A DNA stretch of 29,184 nt from IMG/VR virus record IMGVR_UViG_3300036873_000005, positions 1 to 29,184 of that record, one strand, 5' to 3'. The position numbers were made by a program, and so were the translations under genes. Each line of letters opens with the position of its first letter. The first letter of the stretch is position 1. Below the pieces are notes generated by a model that searched no databases, was not told the DNA's origin, and worked only from the letters and a program-made list of their open reading frames with translations. Below, one piece after another: positions 781 to 25,347 of this stretch. This DNA is from a virus. Lineage: Duplodnaviria > Caudoviricetes.

Positions 781-790
781 CCGCTCTCTC

Positions 791-808
791 CTACCTAGTT
801 AGGTAAAC
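791..808 (-). promoter_or_regulatory. 18-bp junction element, copy 1 (GTTTACCTAACTAGGTAG)
   Basis: Exact match to four other copies; 1 nt after the upstream stop; 3' end forms AGGAG before the ATG at 780. Confidence 0.85.
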
Positions 809-3386: not shown

Positions 3387-3398
3387 AGGCTGACCCTC

Positions 3399-3416
3399 CT
3401 ACCTAGTTAGGTAAAC
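3399..3416 (-). promoter_or_regulatory. 18-bp junction element, copy 2
   Basis: Exact copy; encodes the last codons VYLTR* of the upstream ORF; 3' end forms the AGGAGG SD. Confidence 0.85.
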
Positions 3417-12588: not shown

Positions 12589-12652
12589 ACGCCCCTCCTG
12601 TTGTTTGGTCGTTGCCGCGTTGCGGGCGGCTCCGCTGGGTTGAAGTACCCTT

Positions 12653-12670
12653 CTACCTAGTTAGGTAAAC
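12653..12670 (-). promoter_or_regulatory. 18-bp junction element, copy 3
   Basis: Exact copy; supplies FT* and the stop codon of the SbcC-like gene. Confidence 0.85.
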
Positions 12671-18573: not shown

Positions 18574-18579
18574 GTGCTC

Positions 18580-18597
18580 CTACCTAGTTAGGTAAAC
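18580..18597 (-). promoter_or_regulatory. 18-bp junction element, copy 4
   Basis: Exact copy, 3 nt after the polymerase stop; 3' end gives AGGAG ahead of ATG 18573. Confidence 0.85.
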
Positions 18598-18600
18598 TGT

Positions 18601-20340
18601 TCACCGCTTCGGCATCGGCGTGAGCCCAAACTCTTTCGCCACCAGATTGTAGTCGCACAGGTTCGCCATGTCCGGCCCTACCGACAGGTCAATCCGGTAC
18701 GGTACGTCAGCCTCTAGACGCCAGTCCAGAGGCAACGCGTGGCAACGTCTCCACAGGAGCATCATGGTCGGCTCGATATGGCCGGGCGCGCCATCAAACC
18801 ACCCCGAGTCGTGGACGGTGTTGTTGTGCCAGGCCCGGAGCGGCTTACCGCCCGGTCCTCGGCCTTCGTGCATCTGCCAGTCCGCTGCCTCGGGGAAGTG
18901 CACACCCTCTGCCTGCCACATGGAGGGCACCTGTAGCCCACCCATCGATTCGACCAGGCCCTCACCGTGGTACGCGAGCGCCAGCATCCAAAAGTTGTCC
19001 GTGGCGTTCATGCTCTGAGTCGGCGTGTTCGCCGCCACGTGGAACTGATGATTCAACTGCCGCTTCATCTCCTTCTCGTTCCGCCCATCGCCAGTGTCGA
19101 ACATGTAGCCGGGGAACTTCGGGTCCGAGCCCCACGCACCGACGTAGTCTTCGTCGAACGTCACGCCTTGCGGGAGAGGGATCGAGCGCCGTCGCCCGTA
19201 CGCATCCTCGCTGTAACCGATCCAATTCCCTGACTCCGCCGCGCGTCGGCCCAGCGTGATGATGTCGTAGCTGTACAGGTCCGTGAGTCCGGCGTATCCC
19301 TTGTTGAAGTTGTTATGCGCCTTCTGTGCCATGTCATCGTCGAGCCACAGCCGCGCCTTCTTCCAAATCGTGCCCTGCACCGTGCGCCACGTCGCACCGA
19401 AAATCTCGGCGAAGAACGTCTGCTTCCCGACCGCGTCGCGCTCGTACGAGCCTTTCTTGAACGTGCCGTCCGGCTTCTCATAGATCAGCGCTGCCGTATA
19501 TCCGTGCACGTCCTTACCCAGGCGAATGTAGTCCCACGTCGTACGGTCGGACTTCGGCACCCACCGATACAGGAGCACACCAGCCCGGATCGCAGCCTCG
19601 GCACCGCTGATGTCCCACCGGCCGCACCATCCGTGAACGCGGGGGTCCCAGCCGCCAAAGTTTCCCTTCTTCGGGTCCCACTCGCGTACGCGGAACGGAG
19701 CCACGCGCGGGACAATGCAGGACTTGATGCCGTCCGCTACGTCCTTGTCCGCGCGCTCGGCGATGCCGTGCACGGGCGGGTTGCTCGCGCTGATGCGGCT
19801 CGTGCGCAATGCCCAATTGTACGAAGCATGAATCGCACCATCCGCTCGGCACAGGTTCTCGAATTTGTCCAAGTACTTCGTGATCGCCCCGGCCAACGAT
19901 CGCACCTTAAGGATCGCACGCACTACCTCGATGTCCTTGCCGCTCTTGTTGCTCGGAGTCGGGACATTGGGCACCGAGAGCGACGCGAACCACGAGAGCA
20001 CTTCCGCGCTCGTCGAGTAGTCGCCCTTCTGCCCCTGCATCATCTCCTGACGCATCTCCCAGGATTTCATCTGCTCGGGGAACGTCAGGTTGAGCCCGGC
20101 CTTCGTAAAGAGAAAGTCCGCCACCTTCTTCGCATTGATACCGTGCTTCTCGGCGGAGAACTTCAGCTTGCCGCCACTCACGTCTGAGACCAGCTTCTCT
20201 TCGCGCGCCAACTGATCAGCGAAACGCGTTCGCACTTCACGCACGCGCTCCTTGTCGATTGGCAGTCCTGCCCGGCGTATCGCCGAGATGGCGACATTGG
20301 CCGGGACCAGGATTTGGCGATAGTAGGTTTCCAGGTTCAC
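18601..20340 (-). CDS. Family A DNA polymerase, polymerase domain only (split gene, C-terminal part)
   Basis: GLPID; IHASYN...TSRISASNP; motif A DISGAE; DVH..TA; motif B R...KQTFFAEIFG; GRRR; NTPTQ; motif C VHDS. Confidence 0.92.
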   Translation of the reverse strand: MNLETYYRQILVPANVAISAIRRAGLPIDKERVREVRTRFADQLAREEKLVSDVSGGKLKFSAEKHGINAKKVADFLFTKAGLNLTFPEQMKSWEMRQEMMQGQKGDYSTSAEVLSWFASLSVPNVPTPSNKSGKDIEVVRAILKVRSLAGAITKYLDKFENLCRADGAIHASYNWALRTSRISASNPPVHGIAERADKDVADGIKSCIVPRVAPFRVREWDPKKGNFGGWDPRVHGWCGRWDISGAEAAIRAGVLLYRWVPKSDRTTWDYIRLGKDVHGYTAALIYEKPDGTFKKGSYERDAVGKQTFFAEIFGATWRTVQGTIWKKARLWLDDDMAQKAHNNFNKGYAGLTDLYSYDIITLGRRAAESGNWIGYSEDAYGRRRSIPLPQGVTFDEDYVGAWGSDPKFPGYMFDTGDGRNEKEMKRQLNHQFHVAANTPTQSMNATDNFWMLALAYHGEGLVESMGGLQVPSMWQAEGVHFPEAADWQMHEGRGPGGKPLRAWHNNTVHDSGWFDGAPGHIEPTMMLLWRRCHALPLDWRLEADVPYRIDLSVGPDMANLCDYNLVAKEFGLTPMPKR

Positions 20341-20864
20341 TTGCCGAATTTCTCCGCGAGGTACTTCTTCACGTCCGTGTTCATCCTCGGGTAATCGGGC
20401 CTTACCTCGTCACTCTTCAGGTCGCGCTGCTTCGCCTCGTTCGCATCGAGCACCGGACGATGCGCTGCCAGGAGTGCGTCAACCAGCTTCATCTGCTCAG
20501 CCGCCGTGCCGAAAGCCGGAACGTCGAGGATCAGATGGTCGCAGGACCAGGCGTCAAGGATGATTGCCACGCACGCACTGATATGCGCTACGTGCGGCAT
20601 GCCGTCTTCCTCGTCGAACCACTGCCCGTCCTTCACCCCGTTGGTGTGTCTCTCGATCGCTTCGAGGTACACGGACAGACGCACGGCCTTCATGCGCCAG
20701 TTCATGCCGTCGTAGCCCCACACGTCGTACAACTCCCCGTACTTCGAGCGGCCGGTCGCCATCACGCCCGCCGTCCATATCGCGAGCGCCGGGGGAACGA
20801 GACGCAGCGGAGTCTTCTTGATGCCAAGTATGTCCTTGGGGTTTGTCTTGTCAGCCACGGTCAC
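20337..20864 (-). CDS. dATP/dGTP diphosphohydrolase domain protein (DUF5664-like)
   Basis: NPKD..GIKK.PLRLVP...VM..G..KYG...NWR...Y.EAIERH...G...DEEDG.PHVAH..AC; start uncertain (20858, 20864 or 20873). Confidence 0.85.
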   Translation of the reverse strand: MTVADKTNPKDILGIKKTPLRLVPPALAIWTAGVMATGRSKYGELYDVWGYDGMNWRMKAVRLSVYLEAIERHTNGVKDGQWFDEEDGMPHVAHISACVAIILDAWSCDHLILDVPAFGTAAEQMKLVDALLAAHRPVLDANEAKQRDLKSDEVRPDYPRMNTDVKKYLAEKFGK

Positions 20865-22099
20865 ACGCTCCATTTCAGGTAGTCTGCTCGACTGATGCGG
20901 TCGTGCAGAAGGTCGCATAGCTCGAACGTGTAGCAGGCGTCACCGATCGCACCATCAGCGACTTCTGCCAGCGATGCGTCACGCATCTTCGACTTGTCGT
21001 ACCCAACCCAATACTGCGGTCGGCCCAGCACGTCAACAACGGCTTTCTCCAAACGGAGCGAGTCGTGAGTACCGTCTCCGAGCGCAATCATGGCAAGCAT
21101 GCCATCACCCGCCCGGTTGCACACACCATCCGCTGCCAGCTTCGTGTACGTTACGCCCTCTTCGTCGTAGTGCCCGCTGAACGTCTCCTTCTCGGCCTCG
21201 CTCGCGAAGACCGGCGTGAACAACTCACTGGCAATCACGAGCCCGTCGCCTTCGTTGTAGTCGATCAGGTCCACATACGCGCCCTCGTTCACCGCCCAGG
21301 AGAACCCGATACCGCGCAACCGAAAGTCCGGATGGCATGGATCGGTCGCCACGTCGCGACGGCTCGGGAACTCCTTGGCGTCGTATGCCTCGATGTCGAA
21401 TGCCCACGGTCCCGGATGCGCGGCAAGCCGCGCCAGGAACTCGCGAGCGTCGAGCGGGTTCGCGTACACCTGAGACTTAATCGTCCCGAGCGGTGCTTCC
21501 TGCATACTGCTCGACATACGAGCGATGTCCGCAAAGAACTCCGCACGCCGCGCTTCGGGGTTACGGTCGGCGAGGATGTCACGCGGGTGACGCGCGACGA
21601 AGCACTTGCGACCGTTCTTGTCTTCGATCCAGAGCCCCCGGTACGCGCCCACCTTCGGCTTGCGGCCTTTCTCCGAACGCCAGAACGCACCGAGCGCACG
21701 ATCCCCCAGGAGCAGGATCGGAGCCGTGGACTGTGCTAGGTCAGGCTTCAAGTACCGTAGGCACCGCTTCTCACCGCGCTGATGGATCGCATGCCCCAGG
21801 TCATCGTTGTACGCGCGGCACCGCGAGAGGTTCATGTACTGTACCGCTTCAAGGTCCCAGCCCGAGTCAGTCAATGCGGCGTCGATCATGTCCTTCACGT
21901 CGCCCGCAAATGGCTTCTCGATGAACTCCGCTGCCTCGTCCGGCGCATCACCGATCACCACGAGCGCGGGGGATGACAGGAGCAACGGAACGATCTTACA
22001 GCCTGCTCGTTCGTACTCGCAGCCGACGCACGGCGAGACCGGTTCCTTGACCTTCTTCGGTTTTGGAACGAAAGGACGATTTTTCATCGCGTCGGCCAC
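20861..22099 (-). CDS. Uracil-DNA glycosylase (family 4)-like domain fused to a 3'-5' proofreading exonuclease (split PolA, N-terminal part)
   Basis: CxxC, IGDAP...PFAG, NLSRCR, C..YL, LLG..A, RG.W, HP; then ExoI FDIEA, ExoII HYD, ExoIII DACYT. Confidence 0.85.
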   Translation of the reverse strand: MADAMKNRPFVPKPKKVKEPVSPCVGCEYERAGCKIVPLLLSSPALVVIGDAPDEAAEFIEKPFAGDVKDMIDAALTDSGWDLEAVQYMNLSRCRAYNDDLGHAIHQRGEKRCLRYLKPDLAQSTAPILLLGDRALGAFWRSEKGRKPKVGAYRGLWIEDKNGRKCFVARHPRDILADRNPEARRAEFFADIARMSSSMQEAPLGTIKSQVYANPLDAREFLARLAAHPGPWAFDIEAYDAKEFPSRRDVATDPCHPDFRLRGIGFSWAVNEGAYVDLIDYNEGDGLVIASELFTPVFASEAEKETFSGHYDEEGVTYTKLAADGVCNRAGDGMLAMIALGDGTHDSLRLEKAVVDVLGRPQYWVGYDKSKMRDASLAEVADGAIGDACYTFELCDLLHDRISRADYLKWSV

Positions 22100-22860
22100 T
22101 CCGATCGAGGACGCAGTTTAGCCTTTGCGTTCTCGGGGATGTCACCCACGAACCGAACGAACACGTGCTTGGTCTCAACTTTCACGATGCACCAGCCCTC
22201 AGCTTTCGCTTGTGCGAAGTTCAAGCCTTTGCCTCGAAACAACTTCGACTGTCCTGGTGCGCGATCGCTCGTCACCACGCCCGGCTCAACCTCTCGCCAC
22301 GTACCGGGCGGGAGCGTCGAATACCGCCACCGGCCCCCGCCTCGACCCACATTGCGGCCCAGGTAGTGCCACCGACTGTCCGCCTTGTACACCTGACCAC
22401 TCTCATCCGCGTACGGATCAGCATAGGCCACGAAAACCGTCCAGCCGTACTTCGCCGATGCTTGCTCGATCGAGTCCGTTATCGCCTTATGCGCGGTGTT
22501 GTCCGGCGCGTGTCGTCGGCTCGCTCCACGTTCGAGACAAATCATCTTCTTGTACTCCACACCCAGGTACGTGTGCAGCTTGCCGGGCATGATGCCAAAG
22601 CACTCGGCGTTAAGTAGCTCGTCGTCGAGGAACGTGCCGTACACCGCTTTCGGCATTCCCAGCTTGCCCAGGTATTCATATCGCTCGATGAACTCCCGTG
22701 CCTGCTCTATGGTGATCTCCCGTGTCACGAGCCGTTTGCGCTCGCTCGCCGGGTACTTCTCTCGGTTCAGGTCCGTGCTCATACGCTTCTCGAATTGCGT
22801 AGGCATAGCACCCCGACGCCATACGGGCGCGGGAGTGGACTTGGAGGGACGGTCGGTCAT
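22084..22860 (-). CDS. Mom-family (GNAT-fold) DNA adenine-modification enzyme
   Basis: AREFIERYEYLG...YG.F..DEL...FG...LERG...PDNT...AYADP...E.G.VYKA..W.YLG. Confidence 0.75.
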   Translation of the reverse strand: MTDRPSKSTPAPVWRRGAMPTQFEKRMSTDLNREKYPASERKRLVTREITIEQAREFIERYEYLGKLGMPKAVYGTFLDDELLNAECFGIMPGKLHTYLGVEYKKMICLERGASRRHAPDNTAHKAITDSIEQASAKYGWTVFVAYADPYADESGQVYKADSRWHYLGRNVGRGGGRWRYSTLPPGTWREVEPGVVTSDRAPGQSKLFRGKGLNFAQAKAEGWCIVKVETKHVFVRFVGDIPENAKAKLRPRSEWPTR

Positions 22861-22921
22861 TCCGCCCTCCGCAAGCATGGTGTGCCTGTGTGCACCTTAC
22901 ACCACTCCAAGTCAGTCACTC

Positions 22922-23857
22922 CTACAGGTTTCCGATCTGCGTCAGATAGATGCCCGCCAACATCTCGATCCGCTTGGCGCGGCTTAACTCCTTGATCCTC
23001 TCCAACGTTGTAGCACGCGCTTTCGTTTCCTTACCGATCGTGGCAAGAGCCTTCTTCGAGAAAGCACGCATGCCGCGCGTCCGCTTTACCGACCCCATCG
23101 CAACAATCTCAACGATGGTCGGTCGGCGGGTCTTAAACGCCACGAGCAGTTCCAGCAAGAACTCCCGCGCCTTGTCGCGGTTGCTTCGATTGGCTCGATC
23201 CTTCGTACCGAGAGCACTCGGCTGATCGAGTGCTTCCAGCACCTTCGAGATGTCCGTGCCCACGGCTTGCGCGTCAGTGAACATCTCAGCGAACGCTTTC
23301 AGGATTGCCGTGGCCGACACGCTGGTCTCACCGGTAGGCTTCCAGAACAGATTCTTCGTCAGCTTCTCGTCGTTTACGTCGCGGAGAAACGCCGCACTCG
23401 CGGCTGAGCACGAACGGATACGAATATCCGACGTGACCGCTCGGACTCGATTGAGCAAGTAGAACAGGTTGGCCTCTAGCTCGACATCATCGAACTCGAA
23501 CAGACGCACGGACATCACCGAGCGAGTCTGGACTGCCGCTCGCCAGGTCTGCCCGCCGTCGATAATTGCGATGTCTCCGTTCTTGCGAAGCACCGCAGAC
23601 TTGACGGCTGGAATGATGCCGCCCGCTCTGAGGGTAGCGGCGATCGACTCAACCTCGCTCGTGGCTCCCCTCTGGTAGTGCTCCACGTCGATGATCACCC
23701 GGTGTCTGCCATTGACGGTCTTGCCGTCGCGCACAATCACCGCGCCATCGCCGTCAGGCATGAGCGCAACACCGTCTGTGTACTGCTTCAACCGTCGATC
23801 CGAAAACACCGCGTACGGGTCCAGATACTTCTCGTCATCCTGCTCTACTGGCTTCAT
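22922..23857 (-). CDS. ParB/Srx-like N-terminal domain protein (DGQHR/DUF6551-like)
   Basis: YQR...IA...R.NG...IIDGGQT..AA...EANLF..LNR. Confidence 0.65.
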   Translation of the reverse strand: MKPVEQDDEKYLDPYAVFSDRRLKQYTDGVALMPDGDGAVIVRDGKTVNGRHRVIIDVEHYQRGATSEVESIAATLRAGGIIPAVKSAVLRKNGDIAIIDGGQTWRAAVQTRSVMSVRLFEFDDVELEANLFYLLNRVRAVTSDIRIRSCSAASAAFLRDVNDEKLTKNLFWKPTGETSVSATAILKAFAEMFTDAQAVGTDISKVLEALDQPSALGTKDRANRSNRDKAREFLLELLVAFKTRRPTIVEIVAMGSVKRTRGMRAFSKKALATIGKETKARATTLERIKELSRAKRIEMLAGIYLTQIGNL

Positions 23858-23944: not shown

Positions 23945-24790
23945 TTATGGTGTCTGACTTCCCGAACGGCCGAACGGACGCCACGAGGCGCGCTTCACCT
24001 TGATCTCCCCGCCCGACAGACGGTCGCTCGTCTGCCCGACGTGCTTGTACATCACCGGAGCCGGAGCGGGAGCCACGTGCGACGCCACCACGATCGGCGG
24101 AGCAGTCTCCTTGATCACCCGCGATACCTTCGGCTCCGACTTCGGAACCATCGAGACGGGTCCGCCGCGATCGAACGCCGTGACGAACATCATGTACTTC
24201 AGCGCGACTTCTTCGGCATACCGGTCATTCGGCCGGTGCTCACGGGCGGTCATCGGGCCACGGTTGTAGCCGCGCAACGCAACCTCGTTCACGCCGCCGA
24301 ACTCGTCCACTCGATCCTTCAGGAACCGGATGCCGATTCGCAGGTTGTACTTCGGTACACCGAGTGTGCCCAGGCTACCCTTGCTCGGAGCCTCGAACTT
24401 GATGTCGAGAGCCTTCGCCACCTTCGCCCCGGTATCAGGCATCACTTGCATCAGACCGATCTCACCCGCCTTGCCGATCGCGCGGGGGTTGAATTGCGAC
24501 TCCTTGTCGATCAGAGCCATCACGAGCCGGAAGTCCAGGCCCGCCGTCTTGCTCTCGGTGAGCAGCACACGCGGGAAGTCCACGAAGTCCCGGTACGGCG
24601 CGTCCGGGTTCCGCTTCAGCACGATCTCCATGATCTTCGCTTCGACCGCATCCGACACCTTGACCCGCTCGGCACCACGTGCCGCCTCTGCGCGCTCGCC
24701 AGCGTTGAACGCGTACTGTGCCACCGCCGCCAACGCCACTAGACCGAGCGCCGCTCCGATACCGACTGCTAGATTTTTCAGTCTGCTCAT
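23945..24790 (-). CDS. Lytic transglycosylase (SLT domain) with N-terminal TM/SAR-like anchor
   Basis: ALIDKESQFNPRA...GEIGLMQVMP.T...NLRIG..FL...GYNRGP; Ala/Gly-rich N-terminal helix. Confidence 0.9.
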   Translation of the reverse strand: MSRLKNLAVGIGAALGLVALAAVAQYAFNAGERAEAARGAERVKVSDAVEAKIMEIVLKRNPDAPYRDFVDFPRVLLTESKTAGLDFRLVMALIDKESQFNPRAIGKAGEIGLMQVMPDTGAKVAKALDIKFEAPSKGSLGTLGVPKYNLRIGIRFLKDRVDEFGGVNEVALRGYNRGPMTAREHRPNDRYAEEVALKYMMFVTAFDRGGPVSMVPKSEPKVSRVIKETAPPIVVASHVAPAPAPVMYKHVGQTSDRLSGGEIKVKRASWRPFGRSGSQTP

Positions 24791-24830
24791 AACGAACCTC
24801 CTTTGTTCGGGTTGGTAGACTCCGCCTTCC

Positions 24831-24848
24831 CTACCTAGTTAGGTAAAC
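24831..24848 (-). promoter_or_regulatory. 18-bp junction element, copy 5
   Basis: Exact copy; supplies LPN* and the stop codon of the sigma-like gene. Confidence 0.85.
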
Positions 24849-25347
24849 TCAACTCGGTTTCGGCCCGCTCCTTCATCAGTAGAAGAGTTAGAGGGTCCAT
24901 GTCACAAAGCATATCCGGTGCGGGGGTGTCCTCGTCTTCGTCATCGTGATAGCCTGCACCACCGCTCGGCGCATCGAGCGCCACGTAGACCAAATCATCT
25001 TCGCCGCCTGCCCGCACCGCCCGCTTGAACTCGTTCATGAGAGCCCACTTCATACCGCGCACCATCAGCTTGCGTAGGCTGTCTTCGGTACGCGTTTGTC
25101 CGGCCGGACGAGCGGACGTGCAGTATCGTGCGAAAGTACCGTATGCCGCCATGAGCGCCACCTGACGAAGATCGTCACGACCCAGGTACGGGTGCGCCTG
25201 ACCCTTTGTGGCACGGCGAGCCCGCCACGATGTCAGGTGATCCAAGCACTCGACAAACTTCGGGTGAGCTATCAGGTTCTCGAACTCGGAGTGATACTTG
25301 GGGGAGAGAACAGGGACAGGATTGCTGCCACGAATACCTCGGGGCAT
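24835..25347 (-). CDS. Truncated sigma70-like factor (region 2 plus linker, no region 4)
   Basis: GRDDLRQVALMAAYGTFARY (region 2.2-like); LMVRGMKWALMNEFKR (2.3/2.4-like); VALDAP (SLD-type motif). Confidence 0.6.
   Translation of the reverse strand: MPRGIRGSNPVPVLSPKYHSEFENLIAHPKFVECLDHLTSWRARRATKGQAHPYLGRDDLRQVALMAAYGTFARYCTSARPAGQTRTEDSLRKLMVRGMKWALMNEFKRAVRAGGEDDLVYVALDAPSGGAGYHDDEDEDTPAPDMLCDMDPLTLLLMKERAETELSLPN

Follow-up and report, generated by a model that had tools for sequence, protein, structure and literature searches.

A ParB-like and variant-Mom gene pair beside a split family-A replicase in an uncultured phage

Do five consecutive genes at positions 18601..23857 of a viral DNA stretch form a single pathway of DNA modification? 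The stretch (hereafter the window) comprises the 29,184 nucleotides of positions 1 to 29,184 of IMG/VR record IMGVR_UViG_3300036873_000005. The genes predict a ParB-like protein, a Mom-like protein, a uracil-DNA glycosylase joined to a 3'-5' exonuclease (UDG-exo), a DUF5664 dNTP diphosphohydrolase and a family-A DNA polymerase (PolA), and a first-pass annotation had read them as one operon in which post-replicative purine modification is coupled to the replicase, perhaps with nucleotide substitution. We conclude that these five genes do not add up to a new pathway. They would instead make up two modules, probably carried on one transcript: a split UDG-exo/PolA replicase with DUF5664 in a variable slot, and a cassette of the ParB-like protein and a variant Mom. 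Our preferred account, held tentatively and drawn from sequence comparison, is that this accessory cassette is co-transcribed with the replicase and may acylate some adenines after replication; a Mom that is dead or has been repurposed comes close to this in likelihood.

The five genes proved to be real. Their open reading frames (ORFs) lie on the minus strand at 23857-22922, 22878-22084, 22099-20861, 20918-20337 and 20340-18601, tightly packed, and the Mom ORF overlaps the start of UDG-exo, as had been noticed, by 16 nt if that gene begins at GTG 22099 or by 4 nt if it begins at ATG 22087. The genes and their flanking features are given below; G001 denotes a complete relative with terminal repeats, whose PolA is 77% identical to that of the window.

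24830..24848, minus strand: palindromic promoter- or operator-like element, lineage-specific, of putative function, opening the predicted transcription unit
23945..24790, minus strand: SLT lytic transglycosylase, with which the predicted unit begins (PF01464, E 2e-19; 70% identical in G001)
22922..23857, minus strand: ParB-fold protein of the phage DUF6551-like group, with G-G-Q-T for GxxR (phrog_1033, ESM Atlas)
22084..22878, minus strand: Mom-family GNAT of the YEWLG subfamily (PF25680, AF2 model), likely start ATG 22860
20861..22099, minus strand: N-terminal half of a split PolA, made up of a family-4 UDG-like domain and a 3'-5' exonuclease (PF03167, 1L9G)
20337..20918, minus strand: DUF5664 dNTP diphosphohydrolase (PF18909), placed in a variable slot that separates the two polymerase halves, likely start ATG 20873
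18601..20340, minus strand: family-A polymerase domain standing alone, from a clade of uncultured phages (DNA_pol_A, E 2.6e-12), with Y766F and HDS variants
18579..18597, minus strand: promoter-like element, next copy, located between PolA and a UvsY-like gene and marking where the following unit starts

The evidence for a shared transcript is a 19-bp element with an inner palindrome, present five times in the window (790-808, 3398-3416, 12652-12670, 18579-18597 and 24830-24848), each time in coding orientation, as against no copy in 100 shuffles. Overlapping records close the phage genome as a circle with a non-overlapping total of 97,553 bp (~97.6 kb), and this closed genome holds 13 copies, at gene boundaries. 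G001 has a related element, in 13 copies and at matching places. The element is likely a phage promoter or operator; its reader may be the product of a 170-aa gene at 24835-25347 or some other factor of the phage. With one copy in front of the SLT gene and the next one after PolA, we predict a unit of six genes, SLT, ParB, Mom, UDG-exo, DUF5664 and PolA, with SLT in front; the corresponding predicted unit of G001 lacks ParB and Mom. Scans for sigma-70 promoters and terminators gave results at chance level. Co-transcription of Mom and ParB with the replicase is plausible, and to this extent the first-pass reading is supported, but it does not imply a single pathway. We considered the palindrome as a parS-like site for the ParB protein and rejected the idea, as G001 carries the related element at matching places and has no ParB.

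That the two modules are separable is seen in G001, which keeps UDG-exo, DUF5664, PolA, UvsY, SSB, UvsX, SbcD and SbcC in order, and holds unassigned ORFs of 78 and 268 aa in place of Mom and ParB; no homologue of either was found anywhere in that complete genome. Because G001 keeps the other three genes without them, Mom and ParB are accessory, and UDG-exo, DUF5664 and PolA persist in their absence. Neither protein had a tblastn match in 55 loci of the PolA clade, many of them short or duplicated. Among eight other whole records searched, only that of a distant clade member (G009) has a Mom, which is of the Mu type (HY, Ser, Gln) and lies after sbcC. In a PolA tree built by a quick search only, G001 branches before the window and homologue P0008 (support 94), which fits either one gain of Mom and ParB after the split from G001 or their loss in G001. 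The codon usage of both genes matches that of core genes. Modification genes appear to come and go around the replicase core, because relatives carry differing ones near it: folE/queC/queE/queF with dpdA, or an hmdU kinase with thymidylate synthase, or methylases.

Some of these relatives deserve separate mention. Clusters for 7-deazaguanine (dpdA, folE, queC/E/F) occur within the replicase clade in L008, L012 and L021. L125 combines the hmdU kinase and thymidylate synthase with an exonuclease gene apparently devoid of the UDG part, and L113 has an asparagine-synthase-like gene with methylases. A DruA-like gene (PF14236, E 8e-11) lies between uvsX and sbcD in G001 (L002:14896-15867) and is absent from the window phage; when it was considered as a Mom substitute, comparison with the Mom profile detected no similarity. 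GMP reductase/IMPDH-like, HD phosphohydrolase and NDT-like genes stand among the head genes of G001 (L146:851-9689), which has three NDT-like genes in all.

The calls for the two replicase genes were confirmed. The UDG domain matches PF03167 (E 1.6e-8) and the Thermotoga maritima UDG 1L9G (E 5e-7), and keeps the Cys, Phe, Asn and HP of family 4, with GEGPG reading GDAPD; motif A and HP vary across the clade. Four Cys and the exonuclease residues D235/E237/D312/D387 are invariant in 16 clade members. The exonuclease III motif is usually YxxxD with Tyr; here Tyr occurs in only 2 of the 16, and the window has Gly. PolA has 92 homologues at 42-95% identity and is at most 27% identical to polymerases of cultured phages, and the catalytic residues of its motifs A, B and C (D243, E248, R301, K306, H510 and D511) are invariant in 73/73 aligned sequences. 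In all 22 distinct relatives where both halves were seen, UDG-exo and PolA are separate genes; the gap between them is empty in six, holds DUF5664 in eight and other genes in eight (dCTP deaminase/dUTPase, ThyX with DUF3310, MT-A70, a PALP enzyme and unknowns). On our reading of their sequences, three long PolA homologues carry an intein-like insertion and no fused exonuclease; in these (P0011, P0025 and P0048) the insertion, of ~340 residues, occupies an identical site in the palm. We conclude that UDG-exo and PolA, judged from these alignments, together represent a family-A replicase that is split in two and conserved throughout a clade of uncultured phages.

Two known arrangements resemble this one. 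The UDG-fused PolAs of SPO1-like, SP15-like and N4-like phages, as described in passages of PMC10201439 and PMC13697223, have a family-4 UDG, a 3'-5' exonuclease and PolA in the same order, whereas the present clade has UDG-exo and polymerase as separate genes with a variable gene between them, and the window phage genome has no T-modification genes (ThyX is present). The T7-like PolAs are likewise split at the boundary of exonuclease and polymerase (passages of PMC10201439), but here the clade is another, the phages are of ~100 kb, a UDG domain is present, and UvsX/UvsY/gp32/SbcCD, DnaB and DnaG accompany it. In the same passages of PMC10201439, T7-like PolAs are the only ones reported to be split in this way, and the UDG fusions belong to other groups; the word 'split' does not occur in the passages of PMC13697223, and a limited search of the literature found no UDG-bearing split PolA. 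A beta-clamp homologue lies upstream of UDG-exo in L008, L010, L012, L021, L022, L109, L110, L112, L113 and L120; none was found in the window phage or in the complete G001. The notion that ParB stands in for the missing clamp is unsupported, G001 having neither.

The DUF5664 call was also upheld (PF18909, E 1.2e-18; 67.3 bits against a cut-off of 27). The protein has matches in 199 records of cultured phages, T7-like phages of Ralstonia and Pseudomonas among them, and its identity to the enzyme of the Z-phage Wayne is 30% over 54 residues only. According to passages of PMC12884076, the Wayne enzyme hydrolyses dATP, dUTP and dGTP, and homologues occur in phages with canonical genomes as well. 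DUF5664 is not diagnostic of base substitution.

We turn to the accessory cassette. The Mom protein matches PF25680 (E 2.3e-10; 40.9 bits against a curated cut-off of 27.1), and its AlphaFold model (predicted local distance difference test, pLDDT, 87) has Mu Mom, 8BV8, as best match (Foldseek E 3e-10; VIA Z 17.2, root-mean-square deviation 2.9, 176 residues aligned), against Z 11.9 for the next GNAT. On this predicted model, the family call is solid. The annotation had singled out YEYL in place of the HY of Mu-type proteins. The motif is present, at residues 67-70, and is not unusual: Glu68 takes the position of Mu His58, and since Glu stands there in 142/150 homologues (the best 150 of 312 matches), YEYL appears to be the typical motif of the subfamily (YEWL) and no oddity. 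Passages of PMC13219725 give H58, Y59, R111, S124, D149, R151 and Y159 as key residues of Mu Mom and describe its activity as Gly-tRNA-dependent modification of adenine at N6. The window protein shares the Mu fold and keeps Y59, R111, D149 and Y159 as Y69, R117, D154 and Y164. It differs in the Glu at position 58, a subfamily trait, in His130 for S124, Tyr156 for R151 and Lys165 for Q160, and in its setting, behind a ParB-like gene in a replication unit where the Mu gene stands behind com in a late unit. The change at the essential Ser124 had been missed at first, and because of it the activity of this Mom can be called predicted only.

The gene itself appears to be maintained, with its active site altered. 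Its nearest homologue, P0097 (45% identity), is its sister (support 0.989) and also keeps the equivalents of Y59, R111, D149 and Y159 and the subfamily Glu. In one variant contig, of depth 2.5 and with 10 of 16 differences listed, seven of the nine changed Mom codons are synonymous, and one change falls in the His130 codon, His130 being kept. Elsewhere, a YEWLG Mom domain frequently shares one protein with a LAGLIDADG, HNH-associated, endonuclease VII, GIY-YIG or resolvase domain (P0104, P0108, P0126, P0199, P0206 and others), and such fusions suggest mobility.

The ParB-like call survived as a weaker one than those for the other genes. Its sole family match is phrog_1033 (E 3.4e-5); the ESM Atlas places it with DUF6551/ParB_N clusters (features 0.96; structure TM 0.64, a weak value), an AlphaFold model from two sequences reached pLDDT 36, and no PDB sequence matched. 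The reported DGGQT is present at residues 100-104. We take the DGQHR motif to mark the DGQHR/DndB family, to which this protein does not belong, having DGGQT and no such Pfam match at E 0.1. Only one homologue was found, P0004 (65% identity), and in both proteins the P-motif reads G-G-Q-T, with the arginine of GxxR replaced. This arginine is needed for NTP binding in ParB proteins, according to passages of PMC12704722; those of PMC13229309 demonstrate ParB activation of a DNA modifier and indicate that the ParB activators of phage T-dioxygenases tolerate mutation of P-motif NTP-binding residues. Like these activators and the phage ParB-DUF6551 of PMC12704722, the window protein is encoded by an orphan ParB-fold gene adjoining one for a post-replicative DNA-modifying enzyme family; it differs in that the partner is a GNAT and the P-motif arginine is missing, and the dependence is putative.

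We then surveyed the surroundings of Mom genes in 80 related loci, of which 59 are distinct and 56 were scanned (150/157 neighbour genes). A ParB-like gene lies directly upstream of Mom in 6/56 loci and within two genes upstream in 9/56, which bears out the link drawn between the two. A DNA polymerase is near Mom in one locus, and the DUF5664 family is not among the matches listed for the neighbours. The pairing appears to recur, but not by orthology. In L051, L055, L057, L060, L074, L076 and L092, YEWLG Moms that have the Ser are preceded by a distinct family of ~190-aa ParBs with a conserved C-terminal motif, in many cases with terminase genes adjacent; this family and Mom form a recurrent, apparently uncharacterised cassette. 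A second phage probably carries an equivalent of the window's ParB-Mom pair with PolA, as P0097, P0004 and P0008 (77%) all have a 37,144-bp contig as their longest, their adjacency being deduced from this shared length.

In our preferred account, UDG-exo and PolA would assemble into one ordinary replicase using normal dNTPs, while DUF5664 would hydrolyse dUTP, dATP and dGTP to manage pools, as the Wayne enzyme does. Mom would take an acyl group from a host aminoacyl-tRNA, the phage having no tRNA gene, and the changed residues at 124 and 160 may alter donor binding. ParB may have no catalytic part and help by loading Mom on DNA or timing its action there, by analogy with the phage T-dioxygenases. 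A private tRNA for Mom was rejected; the closed genome has no tRNA gene. In favour of this account are the retained equivalents of Y59, R111, D149 and Y159, the mostly synonymous variation, the pairing with ParB and the core-like codon usage. A bolder version, which we think unlikely, has a ParB-activated Mom, with His or Gly for Ser and a basic residue for Gln160, use a different aminoacyl-tRNA or acyl donor and place an undescribed adenine mark as DNA leaves the split replicase.

Several points weigh against an active Mom, and together they make its main rival a serious possibility, in which the protein no longer catalyses and, together with the ParB-like protein, has been retained to bind DNA or tRNA (as a regulator, a decoy or a replisome accessory); the two-module anatomy would hold, the DNA would be unmodified and restriction would be escaped by site avoidance. 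In passages of PMC13219725, S124A of Mu Mom is catalytically dead and R151A inactive. Ser is found at the first position in 144/150 of the best matches and in 65/67 of a second, locus-derived set of homologues, His in none of them; the second position, here Tyr156, is variable in the subfamily and differs from Mu in most members. P0097 has Gly at the Ser124 position and Arg at that of Gln160, so that two sisters have replaced the essential Ser by two different residues. Among 58 columns conserved in the subfamily, the window Mom differs at 17 (median 7; only 2/124 members differ as much), its branch is long, and it changes faster than its neighbours (45% identity, against 65% for ParB and 77% for PolA). 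ParB lacks the GxxR arginine. We found no activity data for YEWLG-type Moms, and the ParBs beside other such Moms are a separate family, 12-22% identical, with a shared C-terminal motif that the window ParB lacks. Against a dead Mom, both sisters retain R111, D149, Y159 and the subfamily Glu, and the ORF is intact, its variation being mostly synonymous.

Restriction sites bear on the same choice. Six-base palindromes occur at 0.57 of expectation (null 0.97 +/- 0.03), and 21 with at least five expected copies, 15 of them containing adenine, are absent from the 97.6 kb. The missing sites include PvuII (0 vs 27.8 expected) and SalI (0 vs 47.3), both of which Mom blocks according to passages of PMC7261163, and also XhoI, PstI, AatII, HindIII, BamHI and BstBI. 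The set of absent palindromes has turned over since the split from G001, and selection on sites therefore appears to be ongoing. In three dpdA-bearing relatives, palindromes stand at 0.75-0.90 of expectation on 15-22 kb. Such avoidance is what unmodified DNA would favour, but Mu, with an active Mom, is itself depleted (PvuII 2 vs 17.6 expected; SAS palindromes 22 vs 64.5), and because Mu depletes PvuII the avoidance is only weak evidence against Mom. In the Wayne control, PvuII, SalI and XhoI are depleted, and PstI, BamHI, BstBI, AatII and HindIII are near expectation; HgaI sites are not depleted in the window phage (202 vs 198). These controls weaken site avoidance as a disproof of Mom activity. 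Taken together, the site counts are moderate evidence against Z but only weak evidence against a Mom mark limited to certain sequences.

It is also conceivable, though improbable, that the variant Mom is an active acyltransferase whose acceptor is not DNA adenine but another base, tRNA or a host protein. A GNAT fold with changed donor-site residues would allow this, and the substrate cannot be predicted from the fold (passages of PMC13219725); against it, the protein retains the Mom-specific Arg111 and a Mom-like insertion region, and it resembles Mu Mom much more closely than other GNATs.

The purine pathway first envisaged, in which DUF5664 removes dATP and dGTP and a divergent PolA builds a Z or 7-deazaguanine genome alongside Mom, prompts a comparison with Z-DNA systems (PurZ, DpoZ, DUF5664/DUF550 and DmtZ; passages of PMC12884076 and PMC8599892). 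The likeness lies in DUF5664, NDT-like and MazG-like genes in the window, families that serve Z-phages (PMC12884076, in part), and in a PolA with HDS and with Phe at Y766, the sole change common to both DpoZ clades in passages of PMC8599892; other clade members also carry dpdA/folE/queC. The difference is that PurZ is missing from the closed genome and from the complete relative, and that PolA scores 33.7 bits against the NCBIfam DpoZ cut-off of 350, far below it; moreover, Y766F occurs in 53/73 clade members. PF00709 (PurA/PurZ) was not found in the window (G000), G002, G011, G012, G015 or G001, Wayne being positive in an equal search, and Wayne PurZ0 had no tblastn match in the closed genome, with a positive control. 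Also absent from the closed genome were the dpdA family phrog_887 (control G003 positive; background in passages of PMC6884629), QueD, tblastn matches to FolE, QueC, QueE, QueF and DpdA of the clade (controls including L008 and L012 matched) and matches to three methylases. Because these genes are missing, Z or 7-deazaguanine substitution appears unsupported; a pathway of another kind is possible, many ORFs having no family. We therefore rejected Z-DNA as a reading of Y766F, HDS, DUF5664, NDT and MazG, and consider the whole purine pathway, largely refuted for known pathways by these gene absences, by DUF5664 in canonical-genome phages and by the loss here of HindIII, BamHI, PstI, BstBI and AatII sites that are near expectation in Wayne, to be very improbable.

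The closed genome is a mosaic of near-identical records and not a single assembly. The left end of the window joins G011 (302 bp overlap, 100% identity), G015 overlaps both G011 and G002, and G002 overlaps the right end of the window (99.2-100% identity); the repeated 19-bp element served to locate further records. The phage is uncultured and of ~98 kb. Long contigs from several runs match the stretch without any difference, and it is therefore no assembly error; four of the six runs holding it may be its source, and no RNA dataset is among the listed holders of the sequence. Family searches identified UvsY-like, gp32-like SSB (single-stranded DNA-binding protein), UvsX, SbcD, SbcC, endonuclease VII, NDT-like, MazG-like and RNA ligase genes downstream of PolA, which by these matches would form the replication and recombination module of the phage. 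ThyX and dCMP deaminase genes are found in the closed genome, and DnaB and DnaG are encoded as well; the window has no Rfam match. No host was assigned, because no PolA relative was found in prokaryote genomes. Very large head-region proteins (L178:10142-13798 and L179:2048-6900) carry 2'-5' RNA ligase, histidine phosphatase, PI3/4-kinase-like and XkdF protease domains, and L178:4017-4721 is a separate small GNAT.

If Mom is active, it would present Mom chemistry without Ser124, perhaps with another amino-acid donor, and a new DNA base, as well as a second case of ParB helping a DNA modifier. If it is dead, it would be a natural probe of the roles of the Mom fold besides catalysis. In either case, the clade has a UDG-bearing PolA in two genes, and its members carry interchangeable dpdA/que, hmU kinase, methylase or Mom genes nearby. 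We believe it offers a natural series for how one replicase tolerates different base chemistries.

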